A DNA stretch of 64,000 bases from an uncultured Poribacteria bacterium (GCA_958296135.2 CATQHZ020000001.1:4928001-4992000), one strand, 5' to 3'. Positions 38,710 to 58,877 are shown, numbered from the stretch's first letter. Made by a program: numbers and translations. Notes: generated from the letters alone by a model not told the origin.

Positions 38710-38793
38710 GACAGCACTGTAGGAGAGACCTCGGGGCTCAATACCACACTTTTGGAAAAATCTGAAACTTTTTTGGATTTTTCCAAAAGAGAC

Positions 38794-38822
38794 TTGACAA
38801 AAAATCGAAATTTGTATAAAAT
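38794..38822 (+). promoter_or_regulatory. sigma70 promoter upstream of small leader ORF 1
   Basis: TTGACA(38794)-17 bp-TAAAAT(38817). Confidence 0.75.
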
Positions 38823-38886
38823 AGGGACAGTTTTAAGTTTCAAGAGAAGCAACATCCGTAAACCTTGCTTAACGGGGAACAACACA

Positions 38887-39030
38887 GTGAATCAGCGAAT
38901 TCTTAATCCCATTGTGAAACAGGGCACCCATCGCGGGACGCGGCACCTCTCGTGCGCGTCCGCTCCCTTTGTCGCCCCATCACGAGTTCCCGAGCGACTT
39001 AAGACCCCCCCCTTCCTTATCTTCTGTTAA
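38887..39030 (+). CDS. Conserved 47-aa small ORF (leader/precursor peptide 1) MNQRILNPIVKQGTHRGTRHLSCASAPFVAPSRVPERLKTPPFLIFC
   Basis: GTG start with GGGG RBS. Homologous to 58399..58575 with several synonymous substitutions and codon-length indels. Confidence 0.7.
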   Translation: MNQRILNPIVKQGTHRGTRHLSCASAPFVAPSRVPERLKTPPFLIFC

Positions 39031-39186
39031 GTTTTTATCCCCGGCGGCATCGGTATGCGTCGGTATTCTGCCTTAACTTCCGCACGCGCCCGGCGCGTTG
39101 CGGGCCATCTCCGTTGCAAAACAAAAGACTTGCAACTTTTCAACTAGAACCCCTTTAGGGGTGCAACGTTTATAGGAGGTCTGTTT

Positions 39187-40734
39187 ATGCAAATGCTTTG
39201 GCTCATTATCCGACGCGAAGTTGTCTCCAATGTGCTCACCTCTCGCTTCATCATCGGGTTTCTCGTCTGCCTGCTCGCAACCGGTGTCGCCGTGTTGGTG
39301 CAAGTCAACGATTATGAAAAGCGGTTGACGGCTTACCACACCGCCGTGCGGGAATCGCAGGATGAAGCGCGGACGTGGGATGTCTATTCCAAAATCAATC
39401 CGAAGGCGCACCGAAAGCCGAATCCCCTCGGCATCTTTCACGCCGGGATGGAAACATTCGGCGGGAATACTGTGAGTGTTGAACCCGCCCGCCCGATTTG
39501 GAGCGGGCTGCATATCAGCTTCTTCGCCCCCATTCAGAAGATGGGAACGGACAACCCGTTCCTTTCGATTTTTCTGTCGGTGGATGTAACGTTCATCTTC
39601 AAAATCGTGCTCAGTGCGCTAGCGATTCTGTTCGCTTACAACGCGATTTCGGGGGAAAGGGAAGATGGCACCCTCAAACTAGTTTTATCAAACGCTGTGC
39701 CGAGGGACACGATAGTGCTCGGGAAATACTTGGGCGGGATGTTCTCGCTGCTGCCCATTGTTGGCGTGAGTCTCCTATTCGCCCTCCTTTTTGCCTACGC
39801 CTCACCGGCGACGGCCTTTGATGGCAAAGACCTGGCGCACATCGGGCTCATCTTTGCTATCTCGCTGGTGTATGTCTCAACGTGGTATCTGCTCGGGCTG
39901 CTGTTTTCTGTCTGGACGAAGGAAGCTGCCACCACGCTCATCCTGTCCATGTTTGTCTGGGTGATTGTGACAACCGTCCATTCAAATGTCGCGACATTTG
40001 CCGTGGAGCGACTTTTGCCCTCGCAGCCGACAGCGGAATCTTTCCGGCCGATTTTTCAAGAGGCATTGCAAATCTGGGACGCTTTCAGGAAAGAACGGAA
40101 CGCCTACGTGAAACAGAGAGGCCGTGAACAGGCGGCAGACTGGGAGAATCCGCAAGATGCAATTTCCTGGCCATCCAAAGAACTTGCAAGTGAAATAAGT
40201 CACGGTTCTGGAACAGCCCCGTGGTACTCCAAAGAGACCTATGGCGTGAACAATATTGAGCACGCCGACTTGTCCATCTTTCTGGAGATATTAGGCTATC
40301 AGGAACCACTTCGCATTCGCTATGCGGATAAAGTTGAGGAAGTGCTCAACCGACCGAGTCGAGCCGCCGCAAAGAACGCCCAATTGGCAGCGGATATCTC
40401 GCGTCTCTCCTTCGCCGATGTCTATAGTTTTGCGGTGGGCACGCTCGCCGGCACCGACCGGCAGAGCTACACCGATTTTCTGTCCGCCACGCGAACCTAT
40501 AAGCGGCAGCTGGTTGATTATCTCGCCGATAAAGAGGCGTTTTCCTCGCCGACGTGGTTTTCCAGTGACAGGGGCGCGGTGGTGCTCACAGATATGCCGG
40601 TGTTCCGGCACCGGCGGCTGTCGCTATCAGAGAGCCTCTCTCGCGCCGCCGGCGACATTTTGATTTTAGTCGCATGGAATATCATCCTGTTCATGGCGGC
40701 GTATGTCTCGTTCCTCCGCTATGACCTGGGTTGA
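39187..40734 (+). CDS. ABC-2-type transporter permease, type A2
   Basis: AGGAGG RBS, KPNPLGIFH.GME, DNPFL, FAYNAISGEREDGTLKLVLSN. Paralogue of 55533..57032. Confidence 0.9.
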   Translation: MQMLWLIIRREVVSNVLTSRFIIGFLVCLLATGVAVLVQVNDYEKRLTAYHTAVRESQDEARTWDVYSKINPKAHRKPNPLGIFHAGMETFGGNTVSVEPARPIWSGLHISFFAPIQKMGTDNPFLSIFLSVDVTFIFKIVLSALAILFAYNAISGEREDGTLKLVLSNAVPRDTIVLGKYLGGMFSLLPIVGVSLLFALLFAYASPATAFDGKDLAHIGLIFAISLVYVSTWYLLGLLFSVWTKEAATTLILSMFVWVIVTTVHSNVATFAVERLLPSQPTAESFRPIFQEALQIWDAFRKERNAYVKQRGREQAADWENPQDAISWPSKELASEISHGSGTAPWYSKETYGVNNIEHADLSIFLEILGYQEPLRIRYADKVEEVLNRPSRAAAKNAQLAADISRLSFADVYSFAVGTLAGTDRQSYTDFLSATRTYKRQLVDYLADKEAFSSPTWFSSDRGAVVLTDMPVFRHRRLSLSESLSRAAGDILILVAWNIILFMAAYVSFLRYDLG

Positions 40735-40923: not shown

Positions 40924-42369
40924 ATGATTTGGCATATTGTAAAGAAAGAAATCTATCACAACCTCACGACGTTGAGGTTCGCGTTGATGATCCTGCTGCT
41001 GCCGCTCCTGATGATAGCGAACGCCCTCATCTATGGCTTAGCCGGCGGCGGCTGGATGGCGGAAAATAACACGCATCACCAATTGGCAGCCAGATCTTTC
41101 AACGAACTCAAAGCGTCAGCGGCTCAGAGTCTGGCGGAGTTAGCCCTCGTCGGGCCTGGGCGCATTTCCAAGCGGCCCAGCCCGCTGATATTCTGCGCCG
41201 ATGGAGCGGACGAAGTCATACCGAAATTCGTCATGATGAAGAGCGACATTCACAGTAGTCGCAGCGGCGGTAACGATGCGGAACCTTACGCATGGCGTTT
41301 TCCGTGGACATTAGAATATCCGCTGCCGAGTGAGAGCGGTAATTCGATGCAACGCATCAAATTGGACTGGGTGTTCATTGGGATTCTCATGAGCTTCTTC
41401 ACCATCTTGTTCACGTTTGATGCCATCGCCGGGGAGCGCGCCCGCGGCACACTCAGTCTCATCATGTCCAACCAGATCTCCCGCGGGCAGGTGCTGTTGG
41501 CCAAATACCTCGGGGCATTTATCACGCTCATGGTGCCGCTGGCTATCGGTATCCTGATGAACTTGTTGGTTATCCTCCTTAGCGGCAGTATCCCGCTCGC
41601 CGGCGGCGAGTGGCTGCGCATTCTCGGCATGGTGGGGCTGCTGGCACTGCTGGTTTCAAGTTTCATCTTCCTCGGACTGTTTTTCTCCAGTCGTGTCTCA
41701 AATGCTATCACCGGGTTAGTGTGGCTCTTATTAACCTGGGTCTGCCTCGCGTTCGCCTTTCCGAGTCTGCTCGGCACCTTCGTCGGGAACCTTAACCCGA
41801 TTCCATCCGTTGATGAAGTCTCGTTACGGAAAGAGGCACAACTAGCGCAAATCGAAGAAGAATTTCGGGAGCCCCACTCCACACGGCTAAAAAAAGCGCC
41901 GTCTGCCGAAGACCCCGAGACGACGCGCCGCTGGGCCACCTACTTTCTCGCGCGGATAGAGACGCAGACGCAGCTCGCCGATGCACAGATCGACTGGCAG
42001 TTCCGACAGGTGCAACTCGCCCGAGACCTGACGCAGTTCTCGCCGATAGCGTGCTTCCAATATGCGATGGAGGGACTCGCAAACACAGGTGTTGTGAGCT
42101 ACATGAATTTCGTCAAACACGCGCGCCGCTATCGCCAAACGTTTACCGATTTCATCAAGACGGAGGATAGGACAGACTCGGCGAGTCTGCATATCTATCC
42201 GGTGAAAGAGGGATTATCTCAAAAACCGGTTGATGTGGCAGCGGTGCCGCAGTTTCAAGAGGCACTCTCGCATGAAAGTGTGCTGCTGCCGGTGGGATTG
42301 CTAATCCTATTTAACGCGCTGTTCTTCATCATCGCGCAGATTTCGTTTCTGAAGAGCGAGGTGAAGTAA
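40924..42369 (+). CDS. ABC-2-type transporter permease, type B2
   Basis: MIWHIVKKEIYHNL, FTFDAIAGERARGTLSLIMSNQ. Paralogue of 53971..55419. Confidence 0.9.
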   Translation: MIWHIVKKEIYHNLTTLRFALMILLLPLLMIANALIYGLAGGGWMAENNTHHQLAARSFNELKASAAQSLAELALVGPGRISKRPSPLIFCADGADEVIPKFVMMKSDIHSSRSGGNDAEPYAWRFPWTLEYPLPSESGNSMQRIKLDWVFIGILMSFFTILFTFDAIAGERARGTLSLIMSNQISRGQVLLAKYLGAFITLMVPLAIGILMNLLVILLSGSIPLAGGEWLRILGMVGLLALLVSSFIFLGLFFSSRVSNAITGLVWLLLTWVCLAFAFPSLLGTFVGNLNPIPSVDEVSLRKEAQLAQIEEEFREPHSTRLKKAPSAEDPETTRRWATYFLARIETQTQLADAQIDWQFRQVQLARDLTQFSPIACFQYAMEGLANTGVVSYMNFVKHARRYRQTFTDFIKTEDRTDSASLHIYPVKEGLSQKPVDVAAVPQFQEALSHESVLLPVGLLILFNALFFIIAQISFLKSEVK

Positions 42370-42622
42370 ATATCCCTTTCACCGTCGCGCGAGGGAAAAC
42401 CCGGCGAGCGCGAATCGCCGAGGGTTCACCTCGCAAAATCAAACTGAGCGAAAAAAAATGCAACCTTTTCGCATCACGGGTGTGTAACATTTCAGTCAGG
42501 CAACTTTTTTGCAACTCGTTTGTAGTTTGGATAAGTAGACAACCTTTGTTTCCGAATTTTTCAGGAAATAGGGTATAATAGCATAGAGACCGGAACCAAC
42601 AACGATGATGGAGGTTTTGAAA

Positions 42623-43765
42623 ATGAGACATCAAAACGGTTGGCTCACGCTTACCTTTCTCAGCGTTTTCGCCATCGTCCTCTCTCTCAGCGGACAGGCG
42701 AACGCGGAAACTTGGAGTTACTCTGCTCGTTACTCTCACAACGGGGTAACTCTCAGCGAAGTCGTGGAATTTGAGAGCCCGGATGCAATCACCACGGGAC
42801 AATATGAGGGAACGCAGACTGCGGCGGCACTCATGGCGGCGTTTGATGCGGCTTACACTAAGGCACGCCCGAAAACCACTGTGACGGTGTCGCGTCAAGG
42901 GAAGCGTGCTGAAATCAAAAGCGAGTGGACCGAGGCAGAAATCGATGCCCGGTATCCACGCGCCGAGTGGCTGCAGCTGCTTTTGGATAAAGACATCACA
43001 ATAACGCACTTCGGAGACTACGCCATGTCTCTGTCGAAACGGCATACGCTGGCACTCTTGAAGGATAACCCGAAACTGTGGCAGTGGCGGCTCCTGGGCA
43101 TTCCACCGACGAAAGATTGGCATACCTACAAAGCGGCGTATCTCAATAAGGGCGTAGACTTCCATGCGCAGTCCCGGAAAGTGGCGGCATCTGTCGAAGC
43201 GGTGAAGGAACAAGTTGAACGCGCGAAGGAACTTATTCCTGCCGTGCCAGCTCCGCCGCACATTCCTGCGATGCCGATTCCTGCCGTGCCAGCTCCGCCG
43301 CACATTCCTGCGATGCCGAACCTCTGGCAAGAAGTTGATGAAATCGAGCAACTGGTCGAAGAGTTCAAAGCGGCAATTGAGGAAGTCTCCAAGGCCAGGG
43401 ATGACATCGGTGATGAAATCCCGCAACTAGTCGAAGAGTTCAAAGCGGCAATTGGGGAAGTCTCCAAGGCCAGGGATGACATCGGTGATGAAATCGAGCA
43501 ACTGGTCGAAGAGTTCAAAGCGGCAATTGGGGAAGTCTCCAAGGCCAGGGGTGACATCGGTGAGGGCATCAACGGACAACTGAAGCACACGAAAGCGCAA
43601 GTGGCGCACGCGAAGCAGCAGTTAAAACGTGCTGAGGCACAAGTTGAACGCGCGAGGCAACAGTTGAGACGTGCCCAAGAGGCTTTGGAACGTGAGAGAA
43701 AGCGGACCTCGCCGCCAGCTCACAAGCGCGAACCGAAGCAGGATAGCAAGGAGGGGACGCTTTAG
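42623..43765 (+). CDS. Secreted hypothetical protein with Pro-rich and helical/coiled-coil tandem repeats
   Basis: GGAGG RBS, signal peptide, 2x IPAVPAPPHIPAMP (42 bp), 3x DEIEQLVEEFKAAI.EVSKARDDIG (75 bp), C-terminal coiled coil. Confidence 0.75.
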   Translation: MRHQNGWLTLTFLSVFAIVLSLSGQANAETWSYSARYSHNGVTLSEVVEFESPDAITTGQYEGTQTAAALMAAFDAAYTKARPKTTVTVSRQGKRAEIKSEWTEAEIDARYPRAEWLQLLLDKDITITHFGDYAMSLSKRHTLALLKDNPKLWQWRLLGIPPTKDWHTYKAAYLNKGVDFHAQSRKVAASVEAVKEQVERAKELIPAVPAPPHIPAMPIPAVPAPPHIPAMPNLWQEVDEIEQLVEEFKAAIEEVSKARDDIGDEIPQLVEEFKAAIGEVSKARDDIGDEIEQLVEEFKAAIGEVSKARGDIGEGINGQLKHTKAQVAHAKQQLKRAEAQVERARQQLRRAQEALERERKRTSPPAHKREPKQDSKEGTL

Positions 43766-43938
43766 GGGCTCATCCTTTTATCGGTAGGGCGAGGGCCGTC
43801 ACGGTCACGCCGTCTTTTTACCGTAGGGCGAGGGCCGTCACGCCGAAACTTTGTCATCTCTGCAGCCTCGCTGCAGAGATGTCCACTGTCCCTCGCCATG
43901 CCCGATCTTCCCCAGATCGCATTTTATGAGGCGTTACC

Positions 43939-44340
43939 ATGAAAATGCGCAAAATTGACCTGGATCACGTCACATCCAGCTGCGATGCCATCGCCTTTCT
44001 CCGCATGGAAGTTCCTGATGAGCGGTATTATGGCCCCCTGCCATTCGGACACGTTCGGTACGCTTACAAGGGCATTGAACAAGAGGCAGGCTTCCCCATG
44101 GATCTGGATAAGGAAATCTTCCTGACACGGTTCGACGAGGTTCCGGTTAAGAATGCACTCGGAGAAGATGAACCCTTGGATGCAGCAGCATGGCAAGCCT
44201 TAGAGGCGGCTTTTCGCAAGGCCGCACCCGATTTTATTGCAGCAGTGCAAGAAGACTACGCAGCGCGCTGGCAAAGGTTTTTTGGCAGCGACGAGGAAAT
44301 TGAAACCCCACAGGAGGCATATCATGTTACAAACGCGTGA
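43939..44340 (+). CDS. Hypothetical protein (stand-alone copy of the N-terminal domain of 27045..27959), overlapping the ATPase start
   Basis: IAFLRMEVPDERYYGPLPFGHVRYAYKGIEQEAGFPMDLDKEIF. GAGG RBS. Confidence 0.75.
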   Translation: MKMRKIDLDHVTSSCDAIAFLRMEVPDERYYGPLPFGHVRYAYKGIEQEAGFPMDLDKEIFLTRFDEVPVKNALGEDEPLDAAAWQALEAAFRKAAPDFIAAVQEDYAARWQRFFGSDEEIETPQEAYHVTNA

Positions 44341-51977: not shown

Positions 51978-53489
51978 TTAAACCTCGCGCCGAATGAAAA
52001 CCAACAGGATACCCATAAACAGCGCGACGTTCACCAAAAACAGGAGCAACATATCGGGCAACGCGCGCTTTGCATGCATTAGGACATCGCTACGCTCAAA
52101 GGAGAAACGCGGCAAGGCGCGCCAGTCAACCTTCCTTTCTTCCACGAAAAACCATTGTTGTGAGGCGAACATATCCCGCGCATAGAAATAGTCAATCACT
52201 TGCAGACGATAACGTCTCACGGCGGCAAAAAACGCTTGCATGCCGCCCAAGTCTGTGCCAGCCCACGCCTGCGCCGCCGAGTCGAACATGCCCACCGGTG
52301 AGAGTTTGAGCCACAATCTATCCATCACCGCTTGCCGGACGAAAACATCGTCAAGCACCGGCTTTCGGATACGCCACGTCCTCTCCGCCGCACGGATAGT
52401 CAGCGGTTCCATAAAAACGTAATAGCGTTTGACGAGTGGAATGTGCTTCTCAAAGGCCGGCGGCACATCCGAAAGCACGGTGGTGTGCTCTGTATCATAG
52501 TAGGCAAGGAGCATTGCATCGACATCGGCATGAAACCAAAGTTCCCAAACACCTTCAAAATTCGGCGCATCCGGATCGACACCTTCGCGCTTCAGGAACT
52601 GCTCCCGCTCCCGCTTCAATTCGTCCCAGATCTGTTGGATTTGATTTTTGGCGGATTGCACGCGCGCCTGCACGCGCGCCGGTGTCACGAACGGAGCATG
52701 GGCAGCACGGATGAGGTTTGGATAGACAAGCACGAGAAAGCCCCACACGAACATCGCGAGCATCAAGGCGGTGTTCGCACGGCGCGTCACGGTGGAAATG
52801 AACAACCCGAGCAGGTAAAACAGCGACAGATACGCAAACGCAGCAAGCACAATCCCGCCAATGCGCACAAAATCGTTTGCCTTAACAGAAATCGAGGCAG
52901 ATGTCGTGAGCAAAAGCGTCGCGAGCAGTAGACTGATGAGCAGCGGAACGAGCAGACACGTCATCGCACTGAACCACTTGGCGAGCAGGATATGGCCGCG
53001 CCGGACCGGCTGCGCGAGGACGAGACGTAAGGTGCCGCGTTCACGTTCGCCGGCAATCGCATCGTAAGCGAAGATGAGCCCCAGCAGGCTGAGCACGACT
53101 TCAAAAATGAAGACAATGTCAATCGACGAAAAGAACGCCAAGAACGGGTTATCTGTGCCGTGCATTTCGGCATCCCACAGCGACGGCACAAACCCGTGAT
53201 ACACACCGATGAGGTTGCCAACCCGTTTGTCTAAACCGACGTTGAAAATGCTGAGCGGATTCGGGGCCCTATCCACAAACAGCATGTAGTCAGAATAGGC
53301 TTTCGCCTCGCGCAACTGGTTTTGGTGCCGTTTGACAGAGGCGTGGTAACTTCCTAACCGGTGCTCGTAGTCCTGAATCAGCACCGCCGTATTTGCGACA
53401 ACAAGAAGCAACGTGATGAAAAGTGCCGCCGAGAACCGGAACGTCATGAGGTTGTTGAGCAGTTCTCTGCGGATGAGGATGGGTAACAT
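51978..53489 (-). CDS. ABC-2-type transporter permease, type A1 (second copy)
   Basis: PNPLSIFNVGLD, DNPFL, FAYDAIAGERERGTLRLVL, KLSP...AWAGTD. Confidence 0.9.
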   Translation of the reverse strand: MLPILIRRELLNNLMTFRFSAALFITLLLVVANTAVLIQDYEHRLGSYHASVKRHQNQLREAKAYSDYMLFVDRAPNPLSIFNVGLDKRVGNLIGVYHGFVPSLWDAEMHGTDNPFLAFFSSIDIVFIFEVVLSLLGLIFAYDAIAGERERGTLRLVLAQPVRRGHILLAKWFSAMTCLLVPLLISLLLATLLLTTSASISVKANDFVRIGGIVLAAFAYLSLFYLLGLFISTVTRRANTALMLAMFVWGFLVLVYPNLIRAAHAPFVTPARVQARVQSAKNQIQQIWDELKREREQFLKREGVDPDAPNFEGVWELWFHADVDAMLLAYYDTEHTTVLSDVPPAFEKHIPLVKRYYVFMEPLTIRAAERTWRIRKPVLDDVFVRQAVMDRLWLKLSPVGMFDSAAQAWAGTDLGGMQAFFAAVRRYRLQVIDYFYARDMFASQQWFFVEERKVDWRALPRFSFERSDVLMHAKRALPDMLLLFLVNVALFMGILLVFIRREV

Positions 53490-53512
53490 GTTTTTATTGA
53501 CGGTGCTTTCAT

Positions 53513-53952
53513 CCGGCCTTCACGCCGTAGGGCGGGGGCCCGGCGATCGCGAATCGCCGAGGGTTTCCCCCGCCATGCTCAACATCGCGAACAACCCCGC
53601 GCCCTACGGGGAAGAGGAAAAAGGCCTCGGTAGATCAGCAACGCGAGGGACAGGCCCTCGCGCTACGGGGCAATGAACCGGCGCTTTCATCCGGCCTTCA
53701 CGCCGTAGGGCGGGGGCCCGGCGATCGCGAATCGCCGAGGGTTTCCCCCGCCATGCCCAACATCGCGAACAACCCCGCGCCCTACGGGCAAATGAACCAG
53801 CACTTTACTCCCAACATCGCGAACAACCCCGCGCCCTACGGGCAAAAAACCCGGTGCTTCACGCCGTAGGGCGGGGGCCCGGCGATCGCGAATCGCCGAG
53901 GGTTTCCCCCGCCATGCCCAACATCGCGAACAACAGACTCTCGCGCTACGGT
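53513..53952. repeat. REP/REPIN cluster
   Basis: Three copies of cacgccgtagggcgggggcccggcgatcgcgaatcgccgagggtttcccccgccatgc.caacatcgcgaacaa. Confidence 0.85.
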
Positions 53953-53970
53953 TCAACGCATCAGGAGCAT

Positions 53971-55419
53971 TTACTTCACATCGCTTTTCAAAAACGAAAC
54001 CAGCGCGACAATAAAGAACAGCGCACTAAACAGAACCAACAACCCAACGGGCAGCAGCACGCTTTCATACGAGAGTGCCTCCTGAAACTGCGGCACAGCG
54101 GCCGGATTCACCGGTTTTTGTGACAACCCCTCTTTCACGGGATAGATATGCAGACTCGCCGAGTCGCTCCTATCCTCTGTCTTGACGAAATCGGTGAACG
54201 TCTGCCGATAGCGGCGCGCTTGTCGGACGAAATTCATGTAACTCACAACACCTGTGTTTGCGAGTCCCTCCATCGCATATTGAAAGCACGCTATCGGCGA
54301 GAGCTGCGTCAAGTCACCAGCCAATTGCACTTGTCGAAACTGCCGGTCGAGGTGCTCATCGGCAAACCGAGTTTTCGTTGCAACTTCTTTGGTGAAGAAT
54401 TCTGCCCATTGGCGAGTCGCTTCCGGATCTTCGGTAGAGGCGGCTTTTGCTAATTTGCCTTTGTTATCAAACGGCTCATAGTCGTCCCGAATCTGCTTCA
54501 ACTGCTTCTCTTTTTGCAGGGAGACTTCGTCCACGGAGGGAATCGGGTTCAGATTGCCGACAAAGGTACCGAGCAGACTTGGAAACACAAACGCTAAGCA
54601 CACCCAAGTTAACAGCAGCCAGACCAGGCTCGTCACCGCGTTGGTGACGCGACTGGAGACAAACAGCCCGAGGAAGATAAAGTTGGAGACATGCAGCGCA
54701 AAGAGCCCTACCATGCCGAGCAGGCGCAGCCAGTCACTGCCATCAAGCGGTATACTCCCGGTGAGGAGGATAACAATCAGGTTCATCAGAATGCCGATGG
54801 CGAGCGGCACCATGAGCGTCACAAACGCGCCGAGGTATTTTCCCAACAGCACTTGGGCGCGGGAGACTTGATTGGACATGATCAGGCTCAGCGTGCCGCG
54901 CGCCCGTTCCCCGGCGATAGCATCAAACGTGAACAAGATGGTAAAGAAACTCAGCAGCACCCCGATGAACACCCAGTCGATTTTGATGCGTTGTGTTGAA
55001 CTGCTGTCACTGTCCAACGAATATTCCAACACCCACGGGCCGCTCCACTTGTAGTTATACTCCTTCCGGCTATCACCGCTTCGGCTGGAGCTACCGGAAA
55101 CCTGCATGCGGACCCTGCCCGGTATCAGTTCATCCGTGCCATCAGCGCAGAATGTCAGGCGACTCGGCCGTTTCGGCATAGTACCGGGGCCTTCCATCGC
55201 TAACTTCGCGAGACTCTCCCCGGCGATGGTTTGAAGCCGCGTCTGCCGCTTCTTGAGTTCATTGTGATAGGTATCGTTTCGCGCCGGATACCCATTTTCG
55301 CCTAACCCGTAGATAAGCGCGTTCGCTACCATAAGCAGCGGCAGCAGGATGAGGGTCAGCGCGAACCGCAGCGTCGTCAGGTTATGATAAATCTCTTTCT
55401 TCGCAATATGCCAAATCAT
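53971..55419 (-). CDS. ABC-2-type transporter permease, type B2 (second copy)
   Basis: Close paralogue of 40924..42369. GAGGA RBS. Confidence 0.9.
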   Translation of the reverse strand: MIWHIAKKEIYHNLTTLRFALTLILLPLLMVANALIYGLGENGYPARNDTYHNELKKRQTRLQTIAGESLAKLAMEGPGTMPKRPSRLTFCADGTDELIPGRVRMQVSGSSSRSGDSRKEYNYKWSGPWVLEYSLDSDSSSTQRIKIDWVFIGVLLSFFTILFTFDAIAGERARGTLSLIMSNQVSRAQVLLGKYLGAFVTLMVPLAIGILMNLIVILLTGSIPLDGSDWLRLLGMVGLFALHVSNFIFLGLFVSSRVTNAVTSLVWLLLTWVCLAFVFPSLLGTFVGNLNPIPSVDEVSLQKEKQLKQIRDDYEPFDNKGKLAKAASTEDPEATRQWAEFFTKEVATKTRFADEHLDRQFRQVQLAGDLTQLSPIACFQYAMEGLANTGVVSYMNFVRQARRYRQTFTDFVKTEDRSDSASLHIYPVKEGLSQKPVNPAAVPQFQEALSYESVLLPVGLLVLFSALFFIVALVSFLKSDVK

Positions 55420-55532: not shown

Positions 55533-57032
55533 CTACAATTCATAGCGAAGGAACGAGAGATATGCCGCCATGAACAGGATAAGGTTCCATGCCTATAAGA
55601 TAAACATATCGCCTTGCGCGCGAGCGAGACTCTCCGTGAGGGAGAGACGGCGGTGTTTAAAAACAGGCATACCCGTAAAATCCGCCTTGCCCTGGTCATC
55701 GGAGAACCACTGGCGCGAGGAAAACGCCTCTTTATCGGTGAGGTAGTCGACAATCTGCCGCTTATAGGTTCGCGTGCCTTTGATGAAATCGTTCGCGCCC
55801 GCCCGGTCGGTGCCGGCTATCGCGCCGATGGCGAAGGTGTACGCGTCGGCGAATGAAATGCGGGCGATGGCATCAGCGAGTTGCGCGTTGCGCTCCCGGT
55901 CTTCGCTTGGTTTCTTGAGTAGCGCCTCCACTCTGTCGGCATAGCGAATGCGAAGCGGTTCTTGCCAGCCCAGAAATTCCTGATATCTGGACGTATCCGC
56001 AACGTCAAGACTGTTCGGCACCCATTTCTCTTTCAAGAATACGGGGCTAGAGCCGGAGGAAGAGCTGCCCCCAGTGCGCTTTGTATCCGGCGGATAGGAA
56101 ACGGTATCCAGCGGGTCCTCGTGGCCGAGTCTTTTGAGATACCGGTCGCGCTCTTGCTTGAAATCTTCCCACAACTGCCTGGCTTCGGAAATCGCCAGCG
56201 GCTCCACCGGATGCGGCGGAAACTTCTCCACAGCAAACGTCGCAAGGTTGGAATGCACAATCGTCAGCAGCACCCAAAGAAACATGGAGAGGATCAGTGT
56301 CGTCGCGGCTTCTTTCGTCCAGATGGACAGGAGGAGCCCGACGAGATACCACGTCGAGACATACAACAGCGAGACGACAAGCATCACACCCATGCGCCCC
56401 ATATCGGCACCGTCAAAATCGGTTGCAGGAGAGGCTTGCGCGAGAAGCAGCGCAACCAGAAAACTAATAACAACGATGGGAATAAGCGAAAGCATGCCGC
56501 CAAGGTATTTCCCGAGCACCAGCGTATCCCTCGGAATCGCATTGGACAGCACCAGTTTTAACGTGCCATCTTCCCTTTCTCCAGAAATGGTGTTGTAAGC
56601 GAACAGAATCGCCAACGCGCTCAGCACGATTTTGAACACGAAAATAACATCGACGGTGAGGAACCGCGCCAGAAAGGGGTTATCCGAACCCAGTTTCCGC
56701 GCATCTGAGCTATCGCGCCATACCGGTACGGGAAGCGCGATGCTGATGGCATTGGCACCGACGTTCTCCATCCCGACGTGAAAGATGCCGAGGGAATTCG
56801 GCTTTCGGTGCGCCTTCGGATTGATGTCAAAGTAGAGGTTCCACCCTTCCTCTTCTCCCTGTGCCTCCCGCACGGCGGTGTGATATGCCGTGAACCGTTT
56901 TTCGTAATCGTCCACTTGCACCAACACGGCGACACCGGTCGCGAGCAAGCAGACCAGAAATCCGATGATGAAGCGGGCCGTCAACACATTGGAGACGCAC
57001 TCTCGGCGGATAATGAGCCAAAGCATTTGCAT
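55533..57032 (-). CDS. ABC-2-type transporter permease, type A2 (second copy) with in-frame TAG at 55593-55595
   Basis: Paralogue of 39187..40734. After TAG the frame continues AWNLILFMAAYLSFLRYEL*, matching AWNIILFMAAYVSFLRYDLG*. Confidence 0.85.
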
Positions 57033-57075
57033 AAACAGACCTCCTTTCACTTGTCCTCAAACAGTATGTCTGATT

Positions 57076-57186
57076 CGTCTTGCGAGCAGGGAGCAACTCA
57101 CCCGTGGATTCCCACCGACGCAGCGTCTCCCTGGTAGTGCCAAGTCACTCAGCAACCTCACCCATCTTGACCTTTATGTTTTGCAT
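57076..57186 (-). mobile_element. Decayed IS607-family tnpA (MerR-HTH N-terminus) remnant
   Basis: Manual translation MQNIKVKMGEVAE*LGTTRETLRRWESTGELLPARKT, with one internal stop and truncation. AT-rich upstream flank. Confidence 0.65.
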
Positions 57187-57388
57187 ATACCTATATTATA
57201 CGACATTTTTATAGATACTGCGCATTAAAATTGCACTTGATGCAGCGCCTCACCGATATCCTGCGATGTGCCTAGGCTATTCCGACCGGCACCGAGCCCC
57301 GCGACATACCGCAAGCACGCCATTACCTGGTCTCGTAGGCACATGAGGCATCGAGACCAGGAGGTCTCTCCTACAAGCAAGCACGCCA

Positions 57389-58234
57389 TTACCTAGTCTC
57401 GTAGGTGGCTCTCCTGCGTTTCATATCGCCCCAAGTGGTGGCGGCCTTGTCTCTCGGCGAAACCGAGAGAAGGTGGCCCTTCAGGACTGTGCGGATTTCT
57501 GCTTGGGTGAGCACGCGGTGCCAGATGGCAACTTCGTCAATCGCACCTTTGTCAAAGGCAAACTGCAGGCGGTCCTTGGCACATCCAATCCGCAGGGCTT
57601 GGTTATTGCCATCAGCGGGAACCTCGGTGGGAGGAAAACCAAACTCTTGACCGTCGAAGAAGACTTCGCCATCAAGATACATTTTCATAAACGCACCATC
57701 ATAGGTGCCGACAACGTGATGCCACGTTTTGTTTTCCATCTTTGGAAGGACCCCGCTGGAGCTCGTTCGACCGCCGGGGGTGCCCAAAATCATCACGAGA
57801 ACGGTGCCCTTTAAGTGCCCAAGGTCCCAGTCTGCGTCCTCCACTTGGAAGACGGCCATGCCGTAGGCCTGCAAGCCCACCTTCGCGGCATAGACGCCTT
57901 TTTCAAACCAGTAGCCCGAGCCCTCCGTCCAATTGTCCCGAGAAATCCATGCGCTCAGGGTTATCTCACCGTTGATGTTCAGCGCGTCCGCAGCAGGAAG
58001 CGTGACGCAGTCCTCCGTCACGGCGGCACTCTGAATTGCATCCCCATATTTGCCTCGGACAAACTGGGGGTTGCCGACAATCTCCGCATCCAACCCGTTG
58101 CCGGATGCATCAAGAATCATCTCGCGTTTCACGTTGTCAAAGGTGAGATAAACGTCGAGGGCTTCATCCAGTCCCGCTGTGGCAGAGAGAACCGTGAAGA
58201 GTCCAACGATAAAAATAAATGCGATGCGTATCAT
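57389..58234 (-). CDS. Secreted LamG-like jellyroll protein with TTW tail
   Basis: AGGAGG RBS, signal peptide, YLTFD, GKYGDA, WHHVVGTYDG, GAIDEVAIWHRVLT. Tail SVSPRDKAATTWGDMK. Confidence 0.9.
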   Translation of the reverse strand: MIRIAFIFIVGLFTVLSATAGLDEALDVYLTFDNVKREMILDASGNGLDAEIVGNPQFVRGKYGDAIQSAAVTEDCVTLPAADALNINGEITLSAWISRDNWTEGSGYWFEKGVYAAKVGLQAYGMAVFQVEDADWDLGHLKGTVLVMILGTPGGRTSSSGVLPKMENKTWHHVVGTYDGAFMKMYLDGEVFFDGQEFGFPPTEVPADGNNQALRIGCAKDRLQFAFDKGAIDEVAIWHRVLTQAEIRTVLKGHLLSVSPRDKAATTWGDMKRRRATYETR

Positions 58235-58398
58235 TGAGATTTCCTCCTAAACTTACGGCTGCACCTGAAAATAGCGCAGGGAAAATATGCACCGGGACAG
58301 TCCCAATGCAACAGAAATAGCCCGCCACGCGAAGTGCGCGCGCGGGGGTGAAGGCATGACGACGACAAACCCCGCCGCTGCCCTATTTGGTATAAAAC

Positions 58399-58575
58399 TT
58401 AACAAAACATAAGTAAGGGGGGGGTCGAGCCTACTTTTCTGTCGTCAAGGTGAACGGAAACGCGTGACAGCGCGACGAAGGGACCGGACGCACACTGGGG
58501 GTGCTGCGTCCCGCGAGGCCCAAGCCGGTCTGCGGTAACCTGTTTAGCAATGGAGTTAAGCATTCGCTGGTTCAC
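58399..58575 (-). CDS. Conserved 58-aa small ORF (leader/precursor peptide 2) MNQRMLNSIAKQVTADRLGPRGTQHPQCASGPFVALSRVSVHLDDRKVGSTPPLLMFC
   Basis: GTG start with GAGGA RBS, homologous to 38887..39030. Confidence 0.7.
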   Translation of the reverse strand: MNQRMLNSIAKQVTADRLGPRGTQHPQCASGPFVALSRVSVHLDDRKVGSTPPLLMFC

Positions 58576-58650
58576 TTGTGTCGTTCCTCGTTCTGTCTGT
58601 TTCTCTGGCGGCGGCGCGATTTTTCGCGCGCACCGTCGTGTTTGCAACTT

Positions 58651-58679
58651 ATAATACACGAAATTGCAAAGAATGTCAA
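58651..58679 (-). promoter_or_regulatory. sigma70 promoter upstream of small leader ORF 2
   Basis: Minus strand TTGACA-17 bp-TATTAT. Confidence 0.75.
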
Positions 58680-58877
58680 CTTATTCTACGGAAAATCTGA
58701 AAACAGTGGTTTTCCGCGACATGTCTATGAATTTTAGCAGCAATCGCGAGAAATGTCAAACATTTTTTCATTGTTCTGCAAGTTGATACGGGCGGATATG
58801 GCAATCCTCCCTGACACGCACCGCGCGTGCCCGCTTGCCGAAAATGCCCCCTTAATTACTGAAACTTCAGATGTGGA

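Follow-up and report, generated by a model that had tools for sequence, protein, structure and literature searches.

Why do two leaders on opposite strands of one bacterial locus share a strong promoter, a small open reading frame (ORF) and a structured tail, and is this ORF kept for its peptide? The question is raised by a stretch of 64,000 nucleotides (nt) from an uncultured Poribacteria bacterium (GCA_958296135.2 CATQHZ020000001.1:4928001-4992000), called the window below, with positions counted from its first letter. The leaders concerned, copy 1 (38794-39186, + strand) and copy 2 (58235-58679, - strand), have about 19 kb between them and head the two arms of a locus of ABC-2-type permease genes. 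In an initial annotation, made from the sequence alone, they had been described as a new family of ribosome-arrest or sensing leader peptides, or else as the exported substrate of the transporter. Our results showed that both are members of a family of promoter-leader cassettes standing before many unrelated genes, in which the reading frame is apparently maintained and the amino-acid sequence is not. The reading favoured here, held tentatively and as slightly short of an even prospect, is that of a movable cassette in which translation of the small ORF (ORF1) across a C-rich tract gates premature termination, either by Rho or at hairpins.

The two leaders and their family

The architecture initially described was found in both arms. 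Each leader opens with a near-consensus promoter and continues with a GTG-started small ORF and a conserved tail of about 150 nt, up to the AGGAGG ribosome binding site (RBS) that closes the copy. The next genes code for an ABC-2 permease (39187) and a LamG-like protein (58234). The peptides of 47 and 58 amino acids (aa) also align as initially written, with two indels of 15 and 18 nt. Their parts, including a Shine-Dalgarno (SD) sequence and a segment paired in the minimum free energy (MFE) fold, are as follows.

Copy 1, + strand
38794-38822, +: promoter TTGACA-N17-TAAAAT, 11/12 match to the sigma-70 consensus
38887-39030, +: ORF1, GTG start, 47 codons and stop, backed by family-wide frame maintenance
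39005-39012, +: C8 run, read in the sequence as the C of ACC, then CCC CCC (Thr-Pro-Pro)
39043-39072, +: hairpin P1, from family covariation and single-sequence fold
39080-39104, +: hairpin P2, GC-rich stem then T-rich tail, from family covariation and fold
39113-39136, +: hairpin P3 in an AU-rich variant, followed by TTTT, from sequence and fold (P3 of the family by covariation)

Copy 2, - strand
58731-58759, -: second, upstream promoter module TTGACA-N17-TAAAAT, from a promoter scan
58679-58651, -: main promoter TTGACA-N17-TATTAT, 11/12 match to the sigma-70 consensus
58589-58586, -: SD-like GAGG, from the sequence
58575-58399, -: ORF1, GTG start, 58 codons and stop, from the sequence
58455-58476, -: segment within ORF1, predicted partner of SD, start and first codons (58589-58564), from pair probabilities and MFE fold
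58417-58424, -: C8 run, from the sequence
58353-58382, -: hairpin P1, from family covariation and fold
58321-58346, -: hairpin P2 with T-rich tail, terminator-like, from covariation, terminator flag and fold
58278-58310, -: hairpin P3, 10 pairs and T-rich tail, terminator-like, from covariation, terminator flag and fold

The two copies displayed 76% mean column identity over about 400 aligned nt. Since the first permeases of the two arms are identical at 310 of 496 positions (63%), the permease locus is an old inverted duplication, in which the leaders have remained about as similar as the coding DNA. That the resemblance goes far beyond chance follows from the 33 further near-full copies found in their own and three related genomes. 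Independent contigs of public data (three of the four runs listed) matched copy 1 over 38750-39203 with zero differences; the four runs represent contigs of one sample, which break near 58322-58334, at a repeat boundary and before the C run of copy 2. No RNA runs were listed among the public runs carrying the window sequence.

The family was strongly under-found by BLAST with copy 1, which gave copy 2 as its sole member in the genome of the window; copy 2 as query and a profile built from the first 14 copies were needed to recover it. After removal of duplicates, four Poribacteria genomes yielded 35 near-full unique copies, to which about 10 partial or diverged members are added. Thirteen nhmmer matches, seven of them near full length, occurred in the genome of the window, and long matches were recorded in the three others. 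A 24-nt degenerate pattern of P2, scanned against one genome per GTDB species, matched 27 stretches, 26 of them in four Poribacteria metagenome-assembled genome records (16, 6, 3 and 1) and one elsewhere, likely by chance. A six-frame search with a peptide profile matched five of the 176 genomes of the phylum (7, 8, 21, 2 and 1 matches), the single match in the fifth being weak and containing stops. The 3' module (C run and P1-P3) also occurred in other genera and on six metagenome contigs of the Joint Genome Institute (JGI), a recognisable ORF missing there about half of the time. Judged from these searches, the cassette appears limited to a few sponge-symbiont Poribacteria genomes of two or three genera.

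No match to Rfam was obtained at gathering score in the whole window. At E values up to 10 the two leader regions gave sub-threshold noise only, the best at 18.7 bits against a cut-off of 91, and neither Pfam on 17 family peptides nor NCBIfam on the two window peptides yielded anything better than E=0.1. Literature searches, covering sources other than subscription journals, returned no paper on a Poribacteria intergenic repeat, non-coding RNA (ncRNA) or leader. The proposal of a new leader-ORF family stands to this extent, and the frame maintenance and the Pro codons near the ORF end make a translated ORF plausible; the part of the proposal that concerned a function of the peptide was not supported, as described in the next section.

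The promoter column was present in 26 of 26 aligned copies. Most copies carry a second module about 75-80 nt upstream of the main -35. This duplication is tandem and takes in the A-tract preceding the -35, and some copies have part of a third module. The leader RNA would measure about 360 nt, or about 600 nt in a long form where conservation extends about 230 nt past P3 in at least 10 copies (L045, L049, L035, L040, L050, L051, L032, L048, L036 and L034). This 3' extension is pyrimidine-rich, then purine-rich and ends in a T run, the end of the purine-rich stretch being complementary to bases just 3' of P3. Both window copies are short forms, truncated soon after P3.

Reading frame, C run and peptide

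A GG pair was found 8-10 nt before the start codon in all 35 copies, the start itself being GTG in 30 and ATG in five. From there the frame remains uninterrupted through the C run in 34 of them, the exception (L076) carrying a +1 insertion, and it stops 0-8 codons past the C run in 31 of these 34. ORF length is 43-65 aa in 32/35 copies; in three the ORF runs on to 112-154 aa. Ten of the 12 indel length classes within the ORF were multiples of three (3, 3, 3, 3, 12, 15, 15, 15, 18 and 18 nt), against 13 of 44 outside it (Fisher p=0.0012; binomial test against one third, p=0.0005); these counts are approximate, as they concern length classes differing from the mode between anchor columns and not reconstructed events. 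The reading frame is apparently kept by selection and, since such maintenance requires translation, ORF1 appears to be translated.

The C run measures C8 in 22 copies, C9 in eight, C10 in two, C11 in one and C7 in one, and is degenerate in one. In frame, it covers the end of an ACC codon and then CCC CCC, giving two or three Pro codons that are always CCC. Because these codons never vary synonymously, the constraint on the run is placed at the nucleotide level. According to one study (PMC8129111), CCC is translated most slowly of the Pro codons, and CCC-C is prone to frameshifting and avoided in normal genes, so that an invariant C run would be surprising unless pausing or nucleotide identity were favoured. 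The run is also the peak of a C-rich, G-poor stretch (C/G 1.5-1.64, with 13-15 YC dinucleotides per 60 nt), and the genome contains a rho gene (99.5 bits, 479-aa open frame).

Long open frames do occur beyond the C run, but they were rejected as a second ORF entered by frameshifting there: which frame is entered varies among copies, and these frames lie in sequence that is pyrimidine-rich and stop-poor.

Mean pairwise diversity over 26 copies was 0.236, 0.252 and 0.307 at the three codon positions, compared with 0.301 in the untranslated 3' part and 0.365 in the 5' untranslated region (UTR). A codon model on a maximum-likelihood tree gave omega = 0.86, and the pooled Nei-Gojobori pN/pS was 0.79 in the ORF frame versus 1.09 and 0.86 in the other two. 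The initial annotation had listed at least seven synonymous changes between the window copies and had taken them as a sign of selection on the peptide. The count was roughly right (8.0), but it stands against 17.0 non-synonymous differences over 38 aligned codons, a dN/dS of 0.78 that lends no support to such selection. In the syntenic ortholog pair L021/L024, identities of the small ORF by codon position were 0.81/0.89/0.83, against 0.94-0.95/0.94-0.99/0.76-0.82 in the three flanking genes. The element as a whole was 0.78-0.84 identical, versus 0.76-0.82 at third codon positions, and other intergenic DNA of the pair only about 0.50. On these codon comparisons, the peptide sequence is not under amino-acid selection.

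A peptide with a function of its own would be either a sequence-specific arrest peptide of the SecM, TnaC or RAPP/CruR kind, or an exported Cys-containing substrate of an ABC transporter, resembling a ribosomally synthesized and post-translationally modified peptide (RiPP). Thr/Ser-Pro-Pro does occur near the C-terminus in nearly all copies, and ABC-2 permease loci follow both window copies. Yet, Thr/Ser-Pro-Pro is encoded by the invariant C run, whose Pro codons show no synonymous variation. Across 17 aligned peptides, just 8 of the 58 positions never vary, and the tail after the C run, 0-8 residues set by the frame in which the run is left, changes with C-run length and differs between copies. 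The tail written TPP.L.FC, proposed as a conserved feature, is restricted to a few copies, and Cys is found in 30/35 copies and absent from 5. Family peptides are hydrophilic (mean grand average of hydropathicity, GRAVY, -0.32), basic (mean net charge +5.6) and contain 10% Pro, and neither a hydrophobic helix nor a signal peptide was found in them. No RiPP or other modification enzymes were seen near the copies, a hypervariable core was not found either, and most copies lack transporter neighbours. The arrest peptide was rejected because its motif is not conserved at the amino-acid level, and the RiPP precursor or exported peptide because of the missing peptide-level selection, the frame-set tail and the neighbourhoods; with the absence of Pfam and NCBIfam matches added, a functional peptide is given next to no credence.

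The similar divergence of ORF (0.24-0.31), 3' part (0.30) and 5' UTR (0.37) is in keeping with a promoter-bearing dispersed repeat devoid of regulatory content, that is, young and near-neutral copies with an incidental ORF, whose hairpins are transcript-end or stability elements. The rate of the element in the pair L021/L024, near that of third codon positions, points in the same direction, as do degenerate copies: L046 (G004) has an internal deletion that brings the promoter spacer directly against the sequence preceding the C run, L076 the +1 frameshift in the ORF, and L042 has lost its C run. Promoter reuse before unrelated genes is documented for putative mobile promoters (PMC3575422). The cassette resembles these, as described there, by highly similar upstream regions including the promoter, by non-homologous genes and by many copies per genome, and near-identical promoter regions were found before non-homologous genes within one genome. 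Unlike them, it goes well beyond a promoter in carrying a maintained ORF together with structured RNA of about 300-550 nt; neither terminal repeats nor a transposase were seen, no search having been aimed at them. A near-neutral repeat accounts poorly for the excess of multiples of three inside the ORF only (p=0.001), for the frame being open in all copies but one, for compensatory changes in the hairpins, for the invariance of the C run and start region, and for the much stronger divergence of other intergenic DNA in L021/L024. We consider it improbable.

RNA structure, downstream genes and proposed premature termination

Four hairpins, P0 in the 5' part and P1-P3 after the ORF, are supported by covariation, and P2 and P3 are terminator-like, a T-rich tail following each (both are so flagged in copy 2). 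Pairing was possible in 91.5% of 1293 cells, against 28-47% with slid partners, and the covariation score was 0.186 against 0.05-0.09, a control in which the tested structures are favoured, having been derived from the same sequences. Changes on both sides occurred in 18 of 39 pairs, compared with 9.0 +/- 1.8 in shuffles (0/500 reaching the observed value). As RNAalifold gave only sparse consensus structures on the full or the 3' alignment, helices were taken from averaged single-sequence pair probabilities and then counted. In these, P1, P2 and P3 are independent local hairpins in all copies (probability 0.5-0.87).

Pair probabilities averaged over the 35 copies pointed to four further helices: one enclosing the C run, with the usual stop codon in its 3' arm; two small hairpins within the ORF; and a three-part long-range helix joining SD, start codon and codons 3-4 to a near-invariant segment about 120-135 nt downstream. 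Together they were paired in 92.5% of 1256 cells, with both-side changes in 24 cells versus 7.5 +/- 2.3 in shuffles. The long-range helix, which reached a mean pair probability of 0.5-0.74 with 88-96% of cells paired and is present in the MFE fold, is predicted to close the SD and start codon. Its pairing would also explain why third codon positions are invariant in the downstream partner segment.

Type I toxin mRNAs such as hok, tisB and aapA likewise combine small ORFs in several copies with a strong promoter and with closure of the SD by a long-range helix. A toxin-like gene of this sort, with a stable mRNA whose sequestered SD is opened by processing and a small basic protein as product, would agree with the multiple unannotated copies, the strong promoters, the fast evolution of the 43-65-codon ORF at the amino-acid level and the occlusion of SD and start by a distant segment predicted in most copies. 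Yet, the peptide is hydrophilic, basic and Pro-rich (10%) instead of hydrophobic and without a hydrophobic helix; no antisense promoter was found, a shared reverse-strand site being present in 0 of 26 copies (sigma-70-like sites only); and an omega near 1 speaks against any selected protein. This alternative is regarded as highly improbable.

In each of the 24 copies examined, P2 is followed at 77-438 nt by the start of a same-strand ORF with a plausible RBS. Pfam matches above cut-off were obtained for 14 of the 22 downstream proteins scanned, and the families are mutually unrelated: LamG, ABC-2 permease (three copies), WD40, patatin, dockerin/cohesin (three copies), N6/N4 DNA methylase, lamin-tail domain, LRR, GTPase, coiled-coil and trypsin-like peptidase. 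In view of this diversity the cassette is not specific to ABC permeases. The initial statement that it heads ABC-permease operons applies to a short subfamily (copy 1, L021 and L024), which stands before an ABC-2 permease in 3/3 species, and not to the family at large, most copies of which are not beside transporters; the association with exporter genes expected initially is thus not general. Between leader promoter and gene, no further promoter-like sites were reported in the scanned stretch of either window copy.

Several features together suggest a leader in which translation itself would be the signal: the frame is kept as far as the C-rich tract and closed by a stop soon after it, the peptide is irrelevant, and terminator-like hairpins and then a same-strand gene follow. 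According to the favoured reading, one or two strong sigma-70 promoters and a structured leader would have been placed before many unrelated genes, and the act of translating ORF1 would matter rather than its product. Ribosomes crossing or pausing on CCC-CCC would cover the C-rich tract and keep transcription coupled, allowing read-through into the downstream gene; an untranslated leader would lead to premature termination through Rho loading on the C-rich tract, at P2/P3, or both.

Several observations weigh against this reading. The helix over SD and start has no pair with two-sided changes, its basis being thermodynamic prediction and conservation, and the SD-like GG could, on the same fold, be conserved for pairing instead of ribosome binding. 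Whole-leader folding energies differ only modestly from shuffles (z -1.87 with 5/100 as good, and z -1.54 with 8/100). The averaged pair probabilities of the 35 copies contained no competing antiterminator pairing. The stop codon lies about 20 nt upstream of P1 and about 60 nt upstream of P2, too distant for a ribosome at the stop to cover P2 or P3 directly. The C tract has a modest excess of C over G and is in part predicted to be paired (helix Pc), and C-run lengths from long-read assemblies may hold homopolymer errors, the independent-contig check covering copy 1 only. Thirteen diverged or partial members have a C run; of these, five hold an in-phase ORF of at least 35 codons, four have one of 11-14 codons and four have none. 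With so few keeping the ORF, C run and hairpins may be an older core that works without translation. Finally, the conservation over about 230 nt past P3 to a T run in the long form fits a free-standing RNA gene equally well.

Such a gene, a highly expressed structured small RNA or dual-function RNA with a small protein, would act in trans and have mere bystanders as neighbours. Its 3' end would be P3 or, in the long form, the T run further down, and its single-stranded C run could, for example, pair as a seed with G-rich sites or bind a protein. The tandem strong promoters of the element itself, the terminator-like hairpins at its end, structure conserved over the whole length, the further closing helix and T run of the form of about 600 nt, the frequent lack of a recognisable ORF around C run and P1-P3 in other genera and on the six metagenome contigs, and the mutually unrelated downstream genes are all in keeping with it. 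Large and medium structured ncRNAs of unknown function are represented in Rfam by OLE, ROOL, GOLLD and raiA. The long form is of their size class and shares conserved hairpins with them, but it matches no Rfam model, contains a maintained ORF and is confined to two or three genera. In the window copies the terminator-like P3 lies only about 45-50 nt from the next start codon (43 nt upstream of the LamG-like start in copy 2), with no second promoter-like site reported in the scanned stretch before the gene. A same-strand gene after 24/24 copies would be unneeded for a trans-acting RNA. The short subfamily has been retained before ABC-2 permease genes in three species, and frame maintenance requires translation. 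A stand-alone RNA, the main rival of the favoured reading and a serious one, is on balance unlikely.

The favoured reading, a leader gated by its own translation, can be carried further. The cassette would be a portable module made of a promoter and a translation-gated termination switch built around a poly-C tract, which would act as a minimal ribosome-shieldable Rho entry or pause site. Uncultivated sponge symbionts would have copied it before dozens of genes with accessory or host-interaction roles, among them those for patatin, LamG, exporters and the eukaryote-like WD40, LRR and cohesin/dockerin proteins, and would thereby have placed all of these under one translational-status signal, for example the state of elongation factor P (EF-P), prolyl-tRNA or tRNA m1G37. 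This extended version is rather unlikely.

Known systems and the surrounding locus

The closest parallels were sought among leaders controlled by their own ORFs, the comparisons being with these systems as presented in the cited papers. In uORF (upstream ORF)-dependent Rho attenuation (tnaC, speFL, cruR, mgtL, corL), the Rho-utilization (Rut) site is shielded, in tnaC, speFL and cruR, by a ribosome situated on the uORF or at its end (PMC12360218). In the cassette, too, a small and presumably translated ORF stands in a long 5' leader; a C-rich tract resembling a Rut site, which a ribosome could cover, lies where the ORF ends or directly beyond; a same-strand gene is found downstream and a rho gene in the genome. 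It differs by a longer ORF (43-65 codons), by the predicted occlusion of SD and start, by the presence of hairpin terminators as well, and by its many copies before unrelated genes; Rho dependence is only putative in its case. TnaC, SpeFL and CruR moreover act via conserved residues, in contrast to the cassette peptide.

Pausing at polyproline and EF-P alter coupling and both Rho and intrinsic termination (PMC5021804), and a proline-codon leader ORF is known in mgtP/mgtL of Salmonella (PMC3641672). Consecutive Pro codons in a leader ORF upstream of terminators are shared with these systems. Unlike mgtP/mgtL, the cassette displays two or three Pro codons only, all CCC and part of one homopolymer conserved as nucleotides; alternative stem-loops were not detected in it, and its downstream genes are unlinked to Mg2+ or proline.

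A classical leader-peptide attenuator of the trp/his type was rejected, no mutually exclusive terminator and antiterminator pairings having been found.

Leader ORFs, attenuators and reused promoters are each known kinds of element. What is new is their combination and its spread before dozens of unrelated accessory genes. Accessory genes are thought to mediate the life of the uncultivated Poribacteria in sponges, and the finding of one cassette before at least 35 of them, in four genomes, would allow a regulon-like set to be drawn from sequence alone. With its promoter, hairpins, C run and occluded small ORF, the cassette would also be a compact, testable device for transfer into Escherichia coli reporters. 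ORF1 would also be a clean case of an ORF selected for being translated and not for its product, one that peptide-centred small-ORF annotation and dN/dS filters would both mis-handle.

Three further elements adjoin the window copies.

38750-38788, +: inverted repeat of GGAAAA...TTTTCC type abutting the -35 of copy 1, read from the sequence
58685-58715, -: analogous inverted repeat at the same place in copy 2, read from the sequence
39145-39178, +: 34-nt RBS-proximal repeat joined to the end of copy 1 and separate from the cassette, from aligned genome matches

The inverted repeats upstream of the -35 in both copies may be an operator, or the terminator or end of the preceding unit; the sub-threshold Rfam hairpin matches at 38750-38788 are spurious. 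The 34-nt repeat, composed of a small CCCC/GGGG hairpin, an AU-rich stretch and GGAG, occurs at about 10 other places of the genome (L003-L012, around position 1501-1534), directly before unrelated start codons.

The permease locus itself (33186-57050) consists of eight paralogous ABC-2-type permease genes (PF12679 and DUF3526) in two inverted arms, copy 2 being followed by the LamG-like secreted protein gene and then by four of the paralogues. They are accompanied by genes for one ABC ATPase, an outer-membrane efflux protein, a DUF3352 protein and a protein with an NPCBM-associated domain. Summed contig depth rises to 4-100x that of neighbouring bins at 42085-42751, 43419-44085, 53424-54090 and 56759-57425, and many joints interlink these places. 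The gaps that separate the permease genes hold a short dispersed repeat of very high copy number.

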